This document shows positions 2,268-20,783 of a stretch of DNA of 24,000 nucleotides, piece after piece (the first letter of the stretch is position 1; every line of letters starts with the position of its first letter). The notes beneath the pieces were generated by a model. It was not told the origin of the DNA. It made no database searches and saw nothing but the letters and a program-made list of their open reading frames with translations. Source of the stretch: Legionella sp. W05-934-2 (GTDB lineage: Bacteria > Pseudomonadota > Gammaproteobacteria > Legionellales > Legionellaceae); contig NZ_CAXMZT010000004.1 in the NCBI RefSeq assembly GCF_964199965.1, forward strand, positions 198,213 to 222,212, given 5' to 3'. A program made the translations under genes and the position numbers.

Positions 2268-3036
2268 ATGGTTATTCACCATAATTGCCTTAATTAGCAG
2301 CCAATACGCGCTAGCTCTGGATGCAGAACATGTCTTGTGGGATAAAACACCCATCCCTGTCGAACTATCCTTGAATGAGGAAAGGCTCATCCATTTTCCT
2401 CAAGCCATTAGTATTGTAGATAATGAGGCAGCCTCTCAAACCGCACTTTTGAAAATTCAGGATGCTTTGTATCTGAAAGGCAAGGACGTTTTTAAAAACA
2501 AAAGGCTCTTGGTGCAGCTCATGCCTCAAGGTGAGGTCATTATCTTAAACTTAAGCGTTAATGATAAAACTCATGATGTAAAACCAATAGAAGTACTTTT
2601 GGAATCCAAAGAAAATACCAACTCCCCTCAAGAAGTGGTTAACCCGCTGGATTTAAATGCAGTAACACTGACGCGCTTTGCCATCCAATCTTTGTATGCC
2701 CCACAAAGACTGTTGGTTATTCCTGATGGTGTGGGGCGTGTTCCTATGCAAACCCGAAAACAAGTAAGCCTTTTTTATGGTGCCAGCATCGAAGCAAGAC
2801 CATTGATTTCATGGCATGGTGGTGCATTTTATGTAACTGCGGTGGAATTGAAAAACCTGCTGAACAAGGAAGTAATTGTTGATCCTCGCCAAATGATGGG
2901 TAACTGGCAAACCGCTACCTTTTACCCCACCAACACTTTATCACCTCGTAGTAATAAAGAGTCCACTACGGTAGTTCTGGTATCAGACAGGCCCTTTGGC
3001 ACAGCGCTTTCCGCAAGTCGGGAGTACGTACGATGA
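2254..3036 (+). CDS. Periplasmic T4SS protein (position and size of the PFL_4704/TIGR03749 family)
   Basis: 260 aa. Signal peptide (LFTIIALISSQYALA). ATGA overlap with the next gene. Confidence 0.6.
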   Translation: MTTTKWLFTIIALISSQYALALDAEHVLWDKTPIPVELSLNEERLIHFPQAISIVDNEAASQTALLKIQDALYLKGKDVFKNKRLLVQLMPQGEVIILNLSVNDKTHDVKPIEVLLESKENTNSPQEVVNPLDLNAVTLTRFAIQSLYAPQRLLVIPDGVGRVPMQTRKQVSLFYGASIEARPLISWHGGAFYVTAVELKNLLNKEVIVDPRQMMGNWQTATFYPTNTLSPRSNKESTTVVLVSDRPFGTALSASREYVR

Positions 3037-4702: not shown

Positions 4703-7477
4703 ATGAAATTATTCAGCCAAATAAGTGACTGGCTGTTAGGACAACCCAATAAACCAGCATTAACGCAACAAAACATAAAAAAAAGATTTGAGAATCACAA
4801 CCCTTCCTTTGCCAATCAATTGTCTATGGTGGATTTCAATGATGAGCTCAATTTCTTTTTACTCAATGATGGAGTCAGCATTGGTTCAGGTTTTGAATTA
4901 GCCTCCATTCCAGCGGAGGCCGCCTCTACTGAACATTTACACGCTGTATTTAGCAAAATTCGCGACACTTTTGCCACGGTCGTACCTTTGCACAAAGAAG
5001 ATCCCTGGGTGATGCAAATGTATGTCAATGACGAGTACAGTTTGAAGCCGGTTCTCTCTCATATTCAACAAAGCATTGCACCGGACATTGCTGAAACGTC
5101 CTTTACTCGTGACTATTTGGCAAGGTTGGATGATTTGTTTTGCAAGATGACAAGACCCGAAGGCTTGTTTGTTGATCCCAAAACTGATGCACCTTATCGC
5201 GGCAGACGAAGACGAATCAGAGTTTTGTTTTATCGACTCTATCAAAAAACGCAAACCACTAGAGAGCTGGCACTTGCCGAGCATCAGGAAGTCATGGCTC
5301 AGATTGAAAGCAAATTACTATCACCTGGTCTTCAACTAAAACAACTAACCGGTAAAGATTATTATCAGTGGTTGGTGCGTTGGTTTGCAGCTAACCCCGA
5401 AGAACTATTAGCTCGATTTCCTTACCCTAAAGACAAAAAACCAGCGGGCTATACTTTAAGCCAGAATATTTTGTTTTATGAACCGCAAAGTGATGAACAT
5501 GGGTTTATATTTGATGAGATGATTCATCGTATTCTTTATATCGATGGTCTTAAAGAAGCACCTGAAATTGGTCTTTTATCTCGTGAAAAACCGCAAGCCA
5601 ATCCCAAACATCGGTACGCACTTTTAGATAAGTTGCCTGAAGGTGCTACCTACACTATTCAGGTTGTCTTTGAAAATGATGAAGCCTTAGACGGGCATCT
5701 GATGCGTCTTGAAAAAGGCATCGTAGGAACAAGCCTTAAACCGTCACAAGTCAGAGAGGATATCAAAACTGCACGAGATGAATTGTCTATAGGAAACCGT
5801 CTGTTTTGGGTTAATCAATCTATTTTTTATCGTGCCAGTACGAAAGACCAGGCAGTACGCATTGAAAAAGAGCTAAAAGAATTATTTATTGAAGCCAAAA
5901 TGCCTTTGATTTCTTCTTGTTTCGACATTCATCCCATTAACAGTTATCTCAATGCCTTACCTTTTAATTTCAATCCACAATATGCTCGCCAATACTTGCG
6001 CTTTGACCGATTGATGTATGCATCCGAATTAGCCTCTTTACTGCCTGTATATGGACGTAATCAAGGGGCAAGACACCTTCCCTGTTTCACCTTTTTTAAC
6101 CGTTTGGGAGAACCAATACTCTTCGATGTGTTGCATCATGATTTTATCAGCCAAAACTCCCACATGGCCTTGTTTGCTAATTCCGGTGGCGGCAAATCAG
6201 TGGCTACAGGCTGGATGATTAATTCGCTGATGGCCACTAAAAATGCCCGCATCATTCTATTTGAAATGGGAAATTCTTTTGATCGTATACTTCTACATGC
6301 CAAAACACACGGCAAAAAAACCAAGCAGTTATTACTGAGTAATAAAAAAGATGAAGCCGTTCCATTAAATCCATTTTGTGAAGCTTATAAAGCCATTCCT
6401 GAAATCACGGACAATCTGAGTGCAGAACAAGCAACCTTAATTGCGCAAAAAATTAGAACAATCAAAGAAAATCTCGAACAGCCTGCCAGCTCAGAAGAGT
6501 TGGCCTGTAATGATGGATCTCGCTCGTATCTAGCAGAGCTGGCCTTAGCGTTGCGTACCATGATTACTGAAGCCAATGCACTGGAAGAAGAGCAATTTAC
6601 TCTGGCCGATGAAACACTGTTAATCGAAGTCTTAAGTGATGCCATCTTAACGTCATTTAATCATGATATCCCGCAAATGCTAACTGAGCATATTGTAAGT
6701 AGCTTTAAACGGCGACTGGATAAAGAAACAGTTCCTCGCAAAAAAGACCGCATTTTGGATATGCACGACCGATTAAACAGTTATGTCATTAACAGCGCCA
6801 AATCACGCTTTTTTAATGTGCCAACTGAACCTTTAGGAGATTTTGATATCTTCCATGTTGATATCTCCGCGATTAAAGATGATACCGGGAAGCTCGCTTT
6901 AGTGATGGTGTCTTTATTACCAAGAATATTGGCTATGGCAGAAGCCACTCAAAACGACAACAGACCAACCTTTCTTTTTATTGATGAATCTCATTTGCAA
7001 TTTCAAATTCCTTCAGTAGTGGCCGTGTGTTTACTGGTTGCCAAAGTAGCCAGAAAGTTAGGTCTTTGGCTTGTTGCTATTACCCAAAACGTCACCGATA
7101 TGAATTCGGAAAAAGCCACCAAGATTTTATCGCTAATTGAAACCTGGATTTTATTAGGCCTTGATGAAAAGGAAATTAGCGATGTCAAACGCTTTAAATC
7201 ATTAACTCCACAACAAGAAGCCTTAATTAAAGATATTGATTCTCAAAAAGGCTTATATGCAGAAGCGGTTTTATTAGGCTCACGTTATCAAGGATTATTT
7301 CGTGTCATTCCACCTCGCTACTTGCTTGCTCTTTTAATGACTGAAAAATCAGAAAAAGCACAGCGCCATACTCTGGAGAAAAAACATGATGTCCTTAAAG
7401 CCGCTGAATTACTTGCAGAACAACTCGAGAATAAAAAACAAAGCAAAAATCATGATGCTTATTTCTATGATGATTAG
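4703..7477 (+). CDS. traC: VirB4/TraC-like conjugative transfer ATPase (PFL_4706/TIGR03744-type)
   Basis: 924 aa. Walker A FANSGGGKSV. Walker B TFLFIDESH. Length and position are typical of the MPF_G TraC-like ATPase. Confidence 0.9.
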   Translation: MKLFSQISDWLLGQPNKPALTQQNIKKRFENHNPSFANQLSMVDFNDELNFFLLNDGVSIGSGFELASIPAEAASTEHLHAVFSKIRDTFATVVPLHKEDPWVMQMYVNDEYSLKPVLSHIQQSIAPDIAETSFTRDYLARLDDLFCKMTRPEGLFVDPKTDAPYRGRRRRIRVLFYRLYQKTQTTRELALAEHQEVMAQIESKLLSPGLQLKQLTGKDYYQWLVRWFAANPEELLARFPYPKDKKPAGYTLSQNILFYEPQSDEHGFIFDEMIHRILYIDGLKEAPEIGLLSREKPQANPKHRYALLDKLPEGATYTIQVVFENDEALDGHLMRLEKGIVGTSLKPSQVREDIKTARDELSIGNRLFWVNQSIFYRASTKDQAVRIEKELKELFIEAKMPLISSCFDIHPINSYLNALPFNFNPQYARQYLRFDRLMYASELASLLPVYGRNQGARHLPCFTFFNRLGEPILFDVLHHDFISQNSHMALFANSGGGKSVATGWMINSLMATKNARIILFEMGNSFDRILLHAKTHGKKTKQLLLSNKKDEAVPLNPFCEAYKAIPEITDNLSAEQATLIAQKIRTIKENLEQPASSEELACNDGSRSYLAELALALRTMITEANALEEEQFTLADETLLIEVLSDAILTSFNHDIPQMLTEHIVSSFKRRLDKETVPRKKDRILDMHDRLNSYVINSAKSRFFNVPTEPLGDFDIFHVDISAIKDDTGKLALVMVSLLPRILAMAEATQNDNRPTFLFIDESHLQFQIPSVVAVCLLVAKVARKLGLWLVAITQNVTDMNSEKATKILSLIETWILLGLDEKEISDVKRFKSLTPQQEALIKDIDSQKGLYAEAVLLGSRYQGLFRVIPPRYLLALLMTEKSEKAQRHTLEKKHDVLKAAELLAEQLENKKQSKNHDAYFYDD

Positions 7478-18228: not shown

Positions 18229-18282
18229 AAATCAATCAAAACGTGTTTTAAATTTAAAAATAAAACACGTTTTGATTGATTT
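18229..18282. repeat. Perfect 22-bp inverted repeat with 10-nt spacer, directly after the recombinase stop codon
   Basis: AAATCAATCAAAACGTGTTTTA (18229-18250), AATTTAAAAA, TAAAACACGTTTTGATTGATTT (18261-18282). Read directly. Confidence 0.9.
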
Positions 18283-18285
18283 GCT

Positions 18286-18294
18286 TGTTATAAT
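18286..18294 (+). promoter_or_regulatory. Predicted extended -10 promoter element (TGtTATAAT)
   Basis: TG at 18286-18287 and consensus TATAAT at 18289-18294. No good -35. Lies ~24 nt upstream of HHR-B. Confidence 0.5.
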
Positions 18295-18317: not shown

Positions 18318-18366
18318 CACAACTGAAGAGCCAGTGAGAGTCTGGCGAAACCCAATTGGTCTTGTG
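18318..18366 (+). ncRNA. Type I hammerhead self-cleaving ribozyme motif (HHR-B)
   Basis: The RNA reads CACAA CUGAAGA GCCAG-UGAGAGU-CUGGC GAA ACC-CAAUU-GGU C|UUGUG. The core is complete and the stems differ from HHR-A by compensatory changes. Predicted cleavage is after C18361. Confidence 0.8.
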
Positions 18367-18369
18367 AAA

Positions 18370-18416
18370 AGCCACTATCATTCCCTAATCTTGTGGCAGA
18401 ACGTTAAGTCGGGAAC
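18370..18416 (+). ncRNA. Conserved hairpin/pseudoknot leader B, following HHR-B
   Basis: P1 is 18371-18375 with 18393-18397. Loop UUCCC (18381-18385) is complementary to GGGAA (18411-18415). The U-A pair of copy A is replaced here by C-G. Confidence 0.6.
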
Positions 18417-18636
18417 CTCAGTTTCGATCACTGATCACCCACCAGGGTGAAACCACATTAAAACCTCTTGTTTTAAACCTTTTTATCCATTCGCAATTAT
18501 TCTTTGCGAACGGCTGCTCTTTAAAAATTAGGCGAATCAACCAGACTTGTTGTAATCAAATATGGATAACTCATTTTTTAATCATCTGGGAAATACTTCC
18601 CTGATGGGATGGTTTTCCCAATTTTTGGAGAAAACC

Positions 18637-18822
18637 ATGAAAAATGTGAATTTTACCATCCCAAGAAAGGAATACGTATTTTTTGATTTAGCTTGTTGCA
18701 TCAATGAACTTAATACCTTGCGTCATGAGTTTTCGGCACAAGATATAGAGGAAATGAAACAGCTAAGCAAGAAATTGCATTCTCTTTTAGAGGATCAACA
18801 TCCTCAATTCAGTTTAGTTTAA
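18637..18822 (+). CDS. Small hypothetical protein (61 aa) upstream of ardA
   Basis: I prefer ATG 18637 (GGAG 6 nt upstream) over track start 18562, which has no SD. No recognisable family. Confidence 0.45.
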   Translation: MKNVNFTIPRKEYVFFDLACCINELNTLRHEFSAQDIEEMKQLSKKLHSLLEDQHPQFSLV

Positions 18823-18866: not shown

Positions 18867-18885
18867 TTTGCAAGGAGTCTTAAAA

Positions 18886-19392
18886 ATGGATACACCTCAG
18901 ATTTATGTTGCATGTCTTGCAGCTTATAACAATGGCATACTACACGGAGAATGGATTGATGCAACTCAAGATGCAAACACCATTTATGATGAAATTCATG
19001 AAATGTTGGCTAAAAGCCCCATTGAGGATGCAGAGGAATTTGCGATCCATGATTTTGAAGGATTTGGTGGTGCACAAATTGGTGAGTATGACAGCATCAA
19101 TGATGTTGCGGAGCTTGCCTCCTTCATTATGAAGCATGGGGAATTAGGTGCTGAACTTTTTAGCTACTACTCTATTGAAGACGCAGAGAGGATGTTAGAG
19201 GAAAATTATCACGGAGCTTATGATAATGAAGTTGATTTCGCCCGTGCGCTTTTTGACGACTGCTACAGCAGTACAATACCGGAGGATTTGCTATTTTATT
19301 TTGATTATGAAGCTTTTGCGCGTGATCTATTTATAAGCGATTATTTTTCGGTAGAAGCAGATGGTCAAACGCATGTTTTTTATAATTACTAA
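18886..19392 (+). CDS. ardA: ArdA-family antirestriction protein (DNA mimic)
   Basis: 168 aa from ATG 18886 (AAGGAG 8 nt upstream). The N-terminus QIYVACLAAYNNGILHGEWIDA and EEFAIHDFEGF match the ArdA family signature as I recall it. Strongly acidic overall. Confidence 0.8.
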   Translation: MDTPQIYVACLAAYNNGILHGEWIDATQDANTIYDEIHEMLAKSPIEDAEEFAIHDFEGFGGAQIGEYDSINDVAELASFIMKHGELGAELFSYYSIEDAERMLEENYHGAYDNEVDFARALFDDCYSSTIPEDLLFYFDYEAFARDLFISDYFSVEADGQTHVFYNY

Positions 19393-19416
19393 GCCCCTTT
19401 TTTTGGGGCTTTTATT
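19392..19416 (+). terminator. Rho-independent terminator after ardA (shared with the convergent abiEii)
   Basis: AGCCCC (19392-19397), TTTTTTT, GGGGCT (19405-19410), followed by TTTATT. Confidence 0.8.
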
Positions 19417-19417
19417 G

Positions 19418-20341
19418 CTATCTTGAGTTTAATTTTTCCACCGTTGCTATAGCTTGCTCGAAACCAGGTTTTTCTAACTGATAAACCATTTGCTCCAGAA
19501 AAAATCTCCAATGCTCTTCCCACTTTTTATCTGAGCGAAGGTAATGTAATGCTGATATTGATTTCTCATATACGCTATCAGAAGATTCACAGCCAAACAT
19601 CTCCTGCTCTTTTTCTAAGACCTTTTCCAGTACAAGGTAATAATTTTCTGTAAGGCAATTTTGTTGCTGCAATTGATGAAGATCATACAAATGCCTGACT
19701 AAGTGCTTATCTGAGTCGCGCGCGGTTTGATTTGCATCTACGATTCGGCGTGACAATGCTACCCATTTTTCCGCTGCAGTTTCATCTAATGCAACGCAAG
19801 GCACTGGAAAATACTGGTGATCACACTCTGCATCGCCCAAAGTTACTTTAACCATTGAGGAAATGTTCCGCATTTCAGGATTTAACTCCAACGTACCAAG
19901 AAAACAATCAATGGCAATATGGGGCTTCAAATAAATAATGCCTTGAGCACCATCAAAGGAAGCACGAATACTCATATATCGTCCTTCATAAAAGACCTTA
20001 ATATCCTGAGGTTGAACATTAAAGCCGGCATTAATTAATGATTCAACCAATGCACGCCGGAATAATCGCAACTCTCGTCGTCTTGCATCTTTACCTAAAT
20101 TGAGACAAGCAGGCTTAGAAATTACTCGGAAATCGATATCCTCCGAGAGTCTGCTTATCACTCCATAACCTTTAGAAAGACTAGTACCCCCTTGAAATAC
20201 CAACTCAAAATAATCATTAGATATTCCAACTAATAAACGAATTGCTTTTGTAACGAAATAATCTTTGCGAATAAAATCTGCGGGCAATCCTAAGATAATA
20301 GCAGTTTGACGAATTTGCTTTTCATTTAATTCACCTGGCAT
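19418..20341 (-). CDS. abiEii: AbiEii/AbiGii-family nucleotidyltransferase toxin (DUF1814)
   Basis: 307 aa. Motif FQGGTSLSKGYGVISRLSEDIDFRV (GGT...R.SeDiDf). An 11-nt overlap with the upstream antitoxin gene. Confidence 0.8.
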   Translation of the reverse strand: MPGELNEKQIRQTAIILGLPADFIRKDYFVTKAIRLLVGISNDYFELVFQGGTSLSKGYGVISRLSEDIDFRVISKPACLNLGKDARRRELRLFRRALVESLINAGFNVQPQDIKVFYEGRYMSIRASFDGAQGIIYLKPHIAIDCFLGTLELNPEMRNISSMVKVTLGDAECDHQYFPVPCVALDETAAEKWVALSRRIVDANQTARDSDKHLVRHLYDLHQLQQQNCLTENYYLVLEKVLEKEQEMFGCESSDSVYEKSISALHYLRSDKKWEEHWRFFLEQMVYQLEKPGFEQAIATVEKLNSR

Positions 20342-20783
20342 TTATACCACCTTCAAAAATCAGTTTCCTACCCTCTGCATGAATAGAACCACGATATCGA
20401 CTTTTTAATCGCACACTAAAAACAGCTGGTACCTGGGTAGTTTTCCCCGCATTATAATCGCGGATAGCACTTCCTAATTCCCATTTAATTCCTAATTTAT
20501 CTAGCGCCTCTGTTACAACTGTTTCAAAGGGCTCTGTTAGTACAGCTTGTATCTTTCTACCAGGGATACTCATAGGCTCAGCTTTGGCAAATAAGCCGTG
20601 TGCAATTTTAATGATAATGCCCTCGTCCATAAAAGTACGCAGTGCACGATTTAATCTTAATTGTGATTGATTAGAATGATCTTGTATTAAATCACTCCTT
20701 GAAAATACATGGCTGGTGATACGATCAATTTTTTTTCTTAATTCATCACGAAAAGTATTATTGTAATGGTTTTTCCTGTTCAT
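20331..20783 (-). CDS. abiEi: AbiEi-like antitoxin / transcriptional autoregulator
   Basis: 150 aa. Immediately upstream of and overlapping abiEii. The winged-helix-like N-terminus (VFSRSDL...LNRALRTFMDEGIIIKIAHGLFAK) fits the AbiEi/DUF6088 pattern. Confidence 0.65.
   Translation of the reverse strand: MNRKNHYNNTFRDELRKKIDRITSHVFSRSDLIQDHSNQSQLRLNRALRTFMDEGIIIKIAHGLFAKAEPMSIPGRKIQAVLTEPFETVVTEALDKLGIKWELGSAIRDYNAGKTTQVPAVFSVRLKSRYRGSIHAEGRKLIFEGGINAR

Follow-up and report, generated by a model that had tools for sequence, protein, structure and literature searches.

Hammerhead ribozymes are found near integrase genes in bacteria in hundreds of cases, and tandem arrangements have been described (Perreault et al., 2011, PLoS Comput Biol, PMC3088659). 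For three Legionella strains, the main text of that study places ardA directly 3' of a hammerhead and suggests that the action of the ribozyme is important for ardA. It also describes a prophage region of A. tumefaciens where triple hammerheads flank ardA and cleave both in vitro and in vivo in E. coli, as well as polycistronic RNAs with several hammerheads, including those around the A. tumefaciens ardA, that are cut in vitro (PMC3088659). Here we describe HHR-B, a type I hammerhead that precedes a small open reading frame (ORF) and the antirestriction gene ardA in Legionella sp. W05-934-2. The window that was analyzed is 24,000 nt long and corresponds to positions 198,213-222,212 of NZ_CAXMZT010000004.1, forward strand; the coordinates given below refer to this stretch. 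Since Perreault et al. (2011) state such a placement in their main text, a ribozyme upstream of Legionella ardA was already known. The novelty implied when the locus was initially annotated is therefore not upheld, a Legionella hammerhead immediately upstream of ardA having been reported in 2011 (PMC3088659).

The HHR-B Hammerhead

Judged from its sequence and from those of its homologs, HHR-B is a genuine and evolutionarily conserved type I hammerhead, and self-cleavage is predicted. The motif is present at 18318-18366 exactly as the initial annotation wrote it. CACAA (18318-18322) pairs with UUGUG (18362-18366) to form stem I, GCCAG (18330-18334) with CUGGC (18342-18346) to form stem II, and ACC (18350-18352) with GGU (18358-18360) to form stem III. 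The core segments are CUGAAGA (18323-18329) and GAA (18347-18349). Read directly, the topology is that of type I; stem I is open, and loops cap stem II (UGAGAGU, 18335-18341, that is U-GAGA-GU) and stem III (CAAUU). The residues C3-A9 and G12-A14 are those of a hammerhead core, A15.1 pairs with U16.1, and the residue at H17 is not a G. In HHR-B this residue is a C, C18361; the cut is predicted to fall between 18361 and 18362, with U18362 as the 5'-OH nucleotide.

A strict descriptor demanding CUGANGA and GAA, a non-G cleavage site, and minimum lengths of 4 bp for stems I and II and 3 bp for stem III, the latter closed by A...U, has the HHR-B site as its sole match in the window. By chance, 0.005 matches are expected per dinucleotide-shuffled window (both strands, 400 shuffles). 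When the HHR-B sequence is folded in isolation, the hammerhead is the minimum-free-energy structure.

Homologs in the Legionellaceae

HHR-B is followed by a conserved 3' tail (Table 1), and the pattern GTGGCNGNACGNTNAGTCGNGAA describing this tail was used to scan a collection holding one genome per species. The scan returned 49 loci, 40 of which are from Legionella, Legionellaceae or unclassified gammaproteobacterial metagenome-assembled genomes. A type I hammerhead lies directly 5' of the tail in 39 of these 40, and the remaining one, L001, retains just the 3' part of the hammerhead. The other nine loci are GC-rich chance matches, about as many as expected; used as a negative control, they contained no hammerhead according to a hammerhead-only model. 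The tail pattern gave no match in viral contigs.

A covariance model of hammerhead and tail together identified 55 strong copies (54 distinct sequences), exactly two of which are in the window. The hammerhead-only family model (R2) was run with filters off and scored 70.3 bits for HHR-B and 67.6 bits for the other copy, HHR-A, while the best non-hammerhead match in the window reached 16.4 bits. An R2 scan of the real family loci found no hammerhead lacking the tail; the two always occur together. The pattern TTCCCTAANNNNNTGGNNNNNCGNTNAGNNGGGAA could serve for a metagenome scan aimed at a larger hammerhead/tail set.

HHR-A, which the initial annotation had cited, is indeed present at 16106-16158, 2.2 kb from HHR-B and on the same (+) strand. 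The window thus holds a tandem arrangement in the sense of Perreault et al. (2011), with two same-strand hammerheads within a few kb flanking mobile-element genes, and in at least 14 related loci a second copy is found 2.2-4 kb downstream of the first in the same A-then-B order. The alignment of the two paralogs spans the promoter region and the hammerhead, and then a 50-nt block that is 90% identical (16159-16208 vs. 18367-18416). Identity between the copies is 90% in the tail and about 75% in the hammerhead, the ribozyme thus being the less conserved of the two. HHR-A and HHR-B represent two classes: class A has a stem I of the GCAUAA type, while stem I of class B is invariably CACAA/UUGUG.

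Core Conservation and Covariation

Across the 54 distinct sequences U4, G5, A6, A9, G12, A13, A14, and C17 are kept in every one, C3 in 52 and G8 in 53, while N7 varies freely (U in 32, A in 11, C in 10, and G in one). As far as an alignment can tell, invariance with N7 alone left free marks a functional hammerhead core, and nothing else known to us would show it. The cores of HHR-A and HHR-B had been described as identical; they are so except at N7, the one free position of hammerheads, which is C in HHR-A and A in HHR-B. A few decayed members are also found. C3 is replaced by U in L034 (5028-5136, +) and by A in L038 (4322-4429, +), and in L005 the copies at 5688-5797 and 2526-2628 (+) have several core and stem defects.

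The compensatory differences between the stems of the two window copies had been taken as a sign of selection on structure, and this was borne out when homologous loci were aligned. In a MAFFT alignment of 39 distinct modules the proposed structure pairs 96.8% of the cells, compared with 28-38% for slid partners. Nine pairs (75 cells) change on both sides, and the covariation score is 0.330 against 0.149 for shuffles, none of 500 shuffles reaching the observed score. Compensatory pairs are contributed by each of stems I, II, and III. RNAalifold, applied to a MAFFT alignment of 30 intact hammerhead segments, returned the same three-way junction, in which 9 of the 14 pairs are compensatory.

Loop II was initially described as conserved with the pattern UGNGANU, hinting at a tertiary contact. 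The loop is conserved, but its pattern in the family is broader, a 7-nt Y-GNRA-N-N with GCGA, GAAA, GCAA, GUGA, or GAGA as the tetraloop part, and no partner for it was identified in a mutual-information scan. Inspection by eye for pairing of loop II with the tail or the 5' leader gave only possibilities of 3-4 bp, none of them conserved. The pattern would fit a docking loop; conserved A-rich single strands adjoin stem I at its distal end.

The Conserved 3' Tail

The tail most likely folds as an H-type pseudoknot, as suggested by its conservation and by compensatory changes. In HHR-B, helix P1 is formed by GCCAC (18371-18375) and GUGGC (18393-18397), and helix P2 by UUCCC in the P1 loop (18381-18385) and GGGAA (18411-18415). 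The P2 helix of HHR-A (Table 1) is a compensatory variant of that of HHR-B. The pseudoknot pairs were counted with an anchored script, as a tail-only MAFFT alignment misplaced the 5' arm of P1. The P1 helix is closed by C-G in 36 sequences and by U-A in 12, and its outer pair is G-C with a single A-U. P2 is about 99% paired; its fourth position is C-G in 47 sequences, U-A in six belonging to three lineages (HHR-A included), and U-G in one. All but one of the other single-sided changes in the loop arm of P2 are C to U, preserving a G-U pair. The 3' arms were partly fixed by the search pattern in the first 39 sequences, while the extra copies found by the model are unconstrained, and it is these additional copies that supply the P1 covariation.

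Another covarying pair of columns, 87:98 (U18389/A18400 in HHR-B and U16181/A16192 in HHR-A), is U-A in 30 sequences and C-G in 20, with four exceptions, and the neighboring pair 88:97 is always C-G or U-G. These two pairs lie on either side of the 3' arm of P1, and it is difficult to combine them with P1 as regular helices. The 87:98 columns might form a tertiary pair or belong to an alternative conformer, or their covariation might reflect lineage hitch-hiking.

The 3' half of the tail, GUGGCAGAACGUUAAGUCGGGAAC, matches the RAGATH-32 consensus over its first 25 positions. These 25 nt are marked as unpaired in Rfam, whereas here they would pair with sequence located 5' of the start of the model (P1 and P2). 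Going by this overlap, the RAGATH-32 model appears to start midway through a larger structure. The match in copy B comprises the 5' 25 nt and the second hairpin (UCACCC/GGGUGA, 18431-18446), with the first hairpin missing, and that in copy A reaches 14.1 bits at 16185-16278. Both window copies thus score below the gathering threshold of 41.8 bits, while class-A relatives reach 44-103 bits, with the match directly 3' of the hammerhead. In these relatives RAGATH-13 is found at the same position as in the window with 85-107 bits, about 130 nt after RAGATH-32.

Promoters and the Upstream Boundary

An extended -10 had been noted at 18286-18294, about 24 nt before the ribozyme; TGTTATAAT is found there, 23 nt from stem I. 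From this consensus match, transcription is predicted to start at around 18301, some 17 nt 5' of stem I. Among 52 distinct upstream regions of the family, the distance from the end of the element TGnTAnnnT to stem I is exactly 8 nt in 33 and 7-9 nt in 39, and the family promoters have a TTGnnn -35 located 16-17 nt upstream of the extended -10. With the -10 ending 8 nt before stem I, the expected first nucleotide of the primary transcript is 1-2 nt 5' of the ribozyme. HHR-B deviates, together with its closest relatives, in having a gap of 21-23 nt. The extended -10 elements were scored using our own pattern; a simple sigma-70 promoter scan did not report them, and that of HHR-B is omitted by such a scan because it has no good -35.

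An AT-rich inverted repeat with 27-nt arms (Table 1) is found directly 3' of the stop codon of the upstream 314-aa integrase-like gene and 4 nt before the extended -10 of HHR-B. Its 3' arm, AAACACGTTTTGATTGATTT, also occurs upstream of the class-B copies in L006, L011, L029, L035, L042, and L044. The repeat is probably a terminator, boundary or insulator between the upstream operon and the HHR-B unit.

Genes Led by the Two Classes

In class A the hammerhead is followed by RAGATH-32, RAGATH-13, and then homologs of the two integrase-like genes. In class B the order is the small ORF (orf86 homolog), an optional ssb, and ardA, and this order is kept in all 15 loci in which the core is intact and the sequence extends far enough downstream. 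The position of orf86 3' of a class-B hammerhead is kept in the relatives, with identities of 27-93%. In many relatives a 140-aa ORF between the small ORF and ardA encodes an SSB (TIGR00621, E = 1.2e-32), as in L023 at 5015-5437 (+); the window copy is without ssb. The class-B copies that are not followed by ardA are exactly L034 and L038, both with a mutated C3. The initial annotation placed a small ORF and ardA downstream of HHR-B, and both are present (18562-18822 and 18868-19392). Its view that HHR-B leads the ardA transcript agrees with the order kept in 15 of 15 informative loci and with the promoter-like extended -10 just upstream.

Going by gene content, the class-B hammerhead would lead a small ORF/ssb/ardA operon resembling the leading regions of plasmids. 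The genes led by the HHR-B family are of the type needed right after an element has entered a new cell, antirestriction in the window and also ssb in relatives.

Genomic Context

Conjugative type IV secretion genes are found across the first 14 kb of the window (TraC, TraU, TraG_N, coupling protein, DUF2895, and DUF3438), and the context is therefore taken to be an integrative conjugative element. A gene encoding an AcaB-like transcriptional regulator (PF08900, 13967-14461, +) overlaps the 3' end of the coupling-protein gene. When the whole window was compared by megablast with a plasmid collection, a single match of 64 nt to a Legionella adelaidensis plasmid was found, and there was no match in an E. 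coli collection.

The HHR-A module adjoins on its upstream side the gene of a DUF3644 protein (14907-15875, -). A perfect 14-bp palindrome, TTGAGCAATCGCGT/ACGCGATTGCTCAA, lies at 16019-16049, about 20 nt 5' of the HHR-A promoter's -35, and the closest class-A relatives have kept its 3' arm (TTGCTCAAAATAAT). Another inverted repeat, with 19-nt arms, is located further upstream of HHR-A (15935-15974). Both repeats are possible operator sites.

On the other side of ardA, and convergent with it, a gene pair at 19418-20783 (-) includes an AbiEii toxin gene (PF08843, E = 8.8e-37). The neighbor of this gene is a weak candidate for an AbiEi-like antitoxin (NF047376, E = 0.005, far under the cutoff). 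An abortive-infection/toxin-antitoxin pair thus adjoins the antirestriction gene.

Table 1. Features of the HHR-A and HHR-B modules and of the genes they lead (window coordinates).
Feature	Position	Strand	Evidence or remark
Extended -10 of HHR-A, TGCTAATGT	16089..16097	+	Ends 8 nt 5' of stem I; -35-like TTGTCC 17 nt upstream
HHR-A, paralogous type I hammerhead, class A	16106..16158	+	Family model R2, 67.6 bits; predicted cut C16152/U16153
Tail pseudoknot of HHR-A (putative)	16163..16207	+	P1 16163-16167 with 16185-16189; P2 UUCUC 16173-16177 with GAGAA 16203-16207
RAGATH-13 RNA (RF02688)	16420..16514	+	83.7 bits (gathering score 80); 3' of HHR-A and 5' of the first integrase-like gene
Overlapping pair of integrase-like genes, 267 aa and 314 aa	16533..18228	+	Phage_int_SAM_2/Integrase_1; led by HHR-A
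AT-rich inverted repeat, 27-nt arms, 93% complementary, no spacer	18229..18282	.	Repeat search
Extended -10 of HHR-B, TGTTATAAT	18286..18294	+	23 nt 5' of HHR-B stem I
HHR-B, type I hammerhead	18318..18366	+	Direct reading, descriptor, covariation, family model
Conserved 3' tail of HHR-B, inferred H-type pseudoknot	18371..18415	+	Conservation, compensatory changes
Sub-threshold RAGATH-32 match (RF02922), copy B	18393..18457	+	23.3 bits (gathering score 41.8)
orf86, small ORF, 86 aa	18562..18822	+	Without family match; first gene 3' of HHR-B
ardA antirestriction gene, 174 aa	18868..19392	+	PF07275, E = 3.4e-45
Terminator-like hairpin and T-run	19391..19411	+	Closes the HHR-B/orf86/ardA unit

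Possible Roles of the Module

The observations are best explained if HHR-B is a bona fide hammerhead in one of the leader modules found throughout the Legionellaceae, here belonging to a conjugative element, and cleaves the ardA leader; we consider this likely. Such a module would consist of a sigma-70-type extended -10, a hammerhead and an obligatory 3' tail, most likely a pseudoknot. Transcription would start a few nucleotides 5' of stem I, or about 17 nt in HHR-B, and the ribozyme would fold co-transcriptionally and cut between C18361 and U18362. The cut would remove the 5'-triphosphate end together with the ribozyme and any read-through RNA from the upstream operon. The orf86-ardA mRNA would then be left with a 5'-OH followed by UUGUGAAAA (9 nt) and the pseudoknot. 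The outcome may be a defined, promoter-independent and probably decay-resistant 5' end for genes needed early.

RNase E prefers 5'-monophosphate ends. RiboJ is a synthetic insulator composed of a satellite-RNA hammerhead and a 3' hairpin; it trims the variable leader and leaves an mRNA that has a 5'-OH and a stable structure. It may tentatively be proposed that hammerhead and pseudoknot form an obligate self-trimming leader, the sole job of which is to swap the 5'-triphosphate for a 5'-OH capped by the pseudoknot. If so, the early mRNAs (ssb, ardA, recombinase-like) would be uniform and resistant to 5'-end-dependent decay in any new host, and bacterial hammerheads of this class, the function of which has been an open question since 2011, would gain a concrete role. 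The ribozyme is promoter-proximal, the tail fusion is constant and the genes are an early-entry set, and a function in 5'-end maturation or mRNA stabilization is therefore directly testable.

The hammerhead reading of the initial annotation is supported by the core, the stems, the independent fold, and the synteny across 55 homologous copies. Several points weigh against it, or against the role proposed above. The helices of HHR-B are short, 5 bp in stem I and 3 bp in stem III, and the stability of its fold is no better than that of shuffles (z = -0.29). In a 125-nt context the minimum-free-energy fold is without the hammerhead and likewise no more stable than shuffles; folding of this context is uninformative because the RNA would be pseudoknotted and the prediction is pseudoknot-blind. 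If class B is considered by itself, stems II and III covary, while stem I is invariant, and the stem I pairing of this class is for that reason deduced solely by comparison with class A. In the tail, one covarying position supports P2. The HHR-B promoter is a consensus match, and its distance from stem I is 23 nt instead of 8 nt. Self-cleavage is predicted from sequence alone, and stabilization by the 5'-OH and the pseudoknot is suggested by analogy, drawing on RiboJ and the end dependence of RNase E.

To these points must be added the Rfam scores, as neither window copy reaches the gathering threshold of a hammerhead model. Run in E-value mode, HHR-B scored 24.4 bits with Hammerhead_HH9 (threshold 52), and HHR-A scored 17.1 with Hammerhead_1 (threshold 34) and 17.4 with RAGATH-1-hammerhead (threshold 56.3). 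At gathering score, the Rfam 15 hammerhead models had no match in the window or in 18 related loci (L003-L046). With 70.3 and 67.6 bits from the family model, the low scores are a property of the Rfam models and not of the ribozyme. As these models miss the Legionella family, standard annotation pipelines would leave the copies unlabeled.

It might instead be that the ribozymes chiefly serve to cut polycistronic or read-through RNA into cassettes, HHR-B splitting orf86-ardA from the integrase-like operon. This is possible though doubtful. The recurrent same-strand A-then-B tandem, 2.2-4 kb apart in at least 14 related loci, is in line with such a role, as are the multi-hammerhead polycistronic RNAs that Perreault et al. 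(2011) report in their main text as cut in vitro (PMC3088659). However, a promoter-like element directly precedes almost every copy, and the hairpin with 27-nt arms separates the upstream operon from HHR-B. With promoter and hairpin placed before HHR-B, most transcripts there should start at its own promoter. Cassette cutting and maturation of the 5' end of the module's own transcript are not mutually exclusive.

Less likely is a regulated switch, where the tail would bind a protein or ligand, or re-pair, and thereby toggle cleavage or the expression of ardA, ssb, and the recombinase-like genes with the transfer state. The conservation of the tail exceeds what pairing needs (90% vs. about 75% for the hammerhead), unpaired stretches of its loops are invariant (the ACG.U.AG loop), and the 87:98 pair could mean alternative conformers. 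The same covariation may, however, be due to lineage hitch-hiking; no ligand or protein candidate was identified, and no competing helix that disrupts the hammerhead core was found.

Frpo/ssi elements are long, imperfect DNA hairpins of the transferred strand that rebuild a single-strand promoter, its -35 as well as its -10 box, in the leading regions of enterobacterial plasmids, before ssb and ardA. The module of HHR-B occupies the same position before ssb/ardA and a long hairpin is found just upstream, and a few members (L005, L034, and L038) have decayed cores, but it is very improbable that HHR-B is a DNA-level element of this kind (single-strand promoter or origin) or a non-cleaving relic. 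No DNA function predicts an invariant core with N7 alone free, and the core of HHR-B is intact. The sole long hairpin (18229-18282) ends before the -10 at 18286-18294 and contains no -10 element, and an Frpo/ssi single-strand promoter was rejected as a candidate. A chance match to a short consensus of low information, for which one might cite the sub-threshold Rfam scores and the chance occurrence of hammerhead-like strings in large scans, has next to no probability given the expectation of 0.005 per window and the second copy with compensatory stems, and is already refuted by 55 homologs with covariation and conserved synteny. The pattern of core conservation effectively excludes the DNA-element, relic and chance readings alike, and the preferred reading is still that of a cleaving hammerhead in the ardA leader.

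Comparison with Known Systems

RiboJ and the Legionella module are both promoter-proximal hammerheads; the former is engineered and carries a hairpin, while the latter is natural and carries a putative pseudoknot. Frpo/ssi elements occupy the same niche before ssb/ardA, where the HHR-B module instead has a ribozyme core and an ordinary duplex promoter.

The Legionella hammerheads of Perreault et al. (2011) are closest to HHR-B, sharing ribozyme class, genus and downstream gene, and we infer that they are class B, the main text giving no sequences (PMC3088659). A term search of that main text gave no mention of a fused tail, promoter adjacency, or a small ORF with ssb, nor of a second hammerhead before integrase-like genes. 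In a search of the available literature no description was found of an obligate tail fusion overlapping RAGATH-32, of a fixed 8-nt promoter spacing, of the class A/B organization, or of Rfam hammerhead models missing the family. The triple arrangement in A. tumefaciens, as presented in the main text (PMC3088659), resembles that of the window, as several hammerheads of one strand surround ardA within a few kb. The host is a different one and the element is prophage-like rather than conjugative, and the likeness is one of arrangement.

Both the family to which HHR-B belongs and its context were known; added here are the putative pseudoknot tail, the placement of the promoter next to the ribozyme, and the division into two classes. 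The value of HHR-B is as a defined test case for the unsolved purpose of bacterial hammerheads rather than as a new category.

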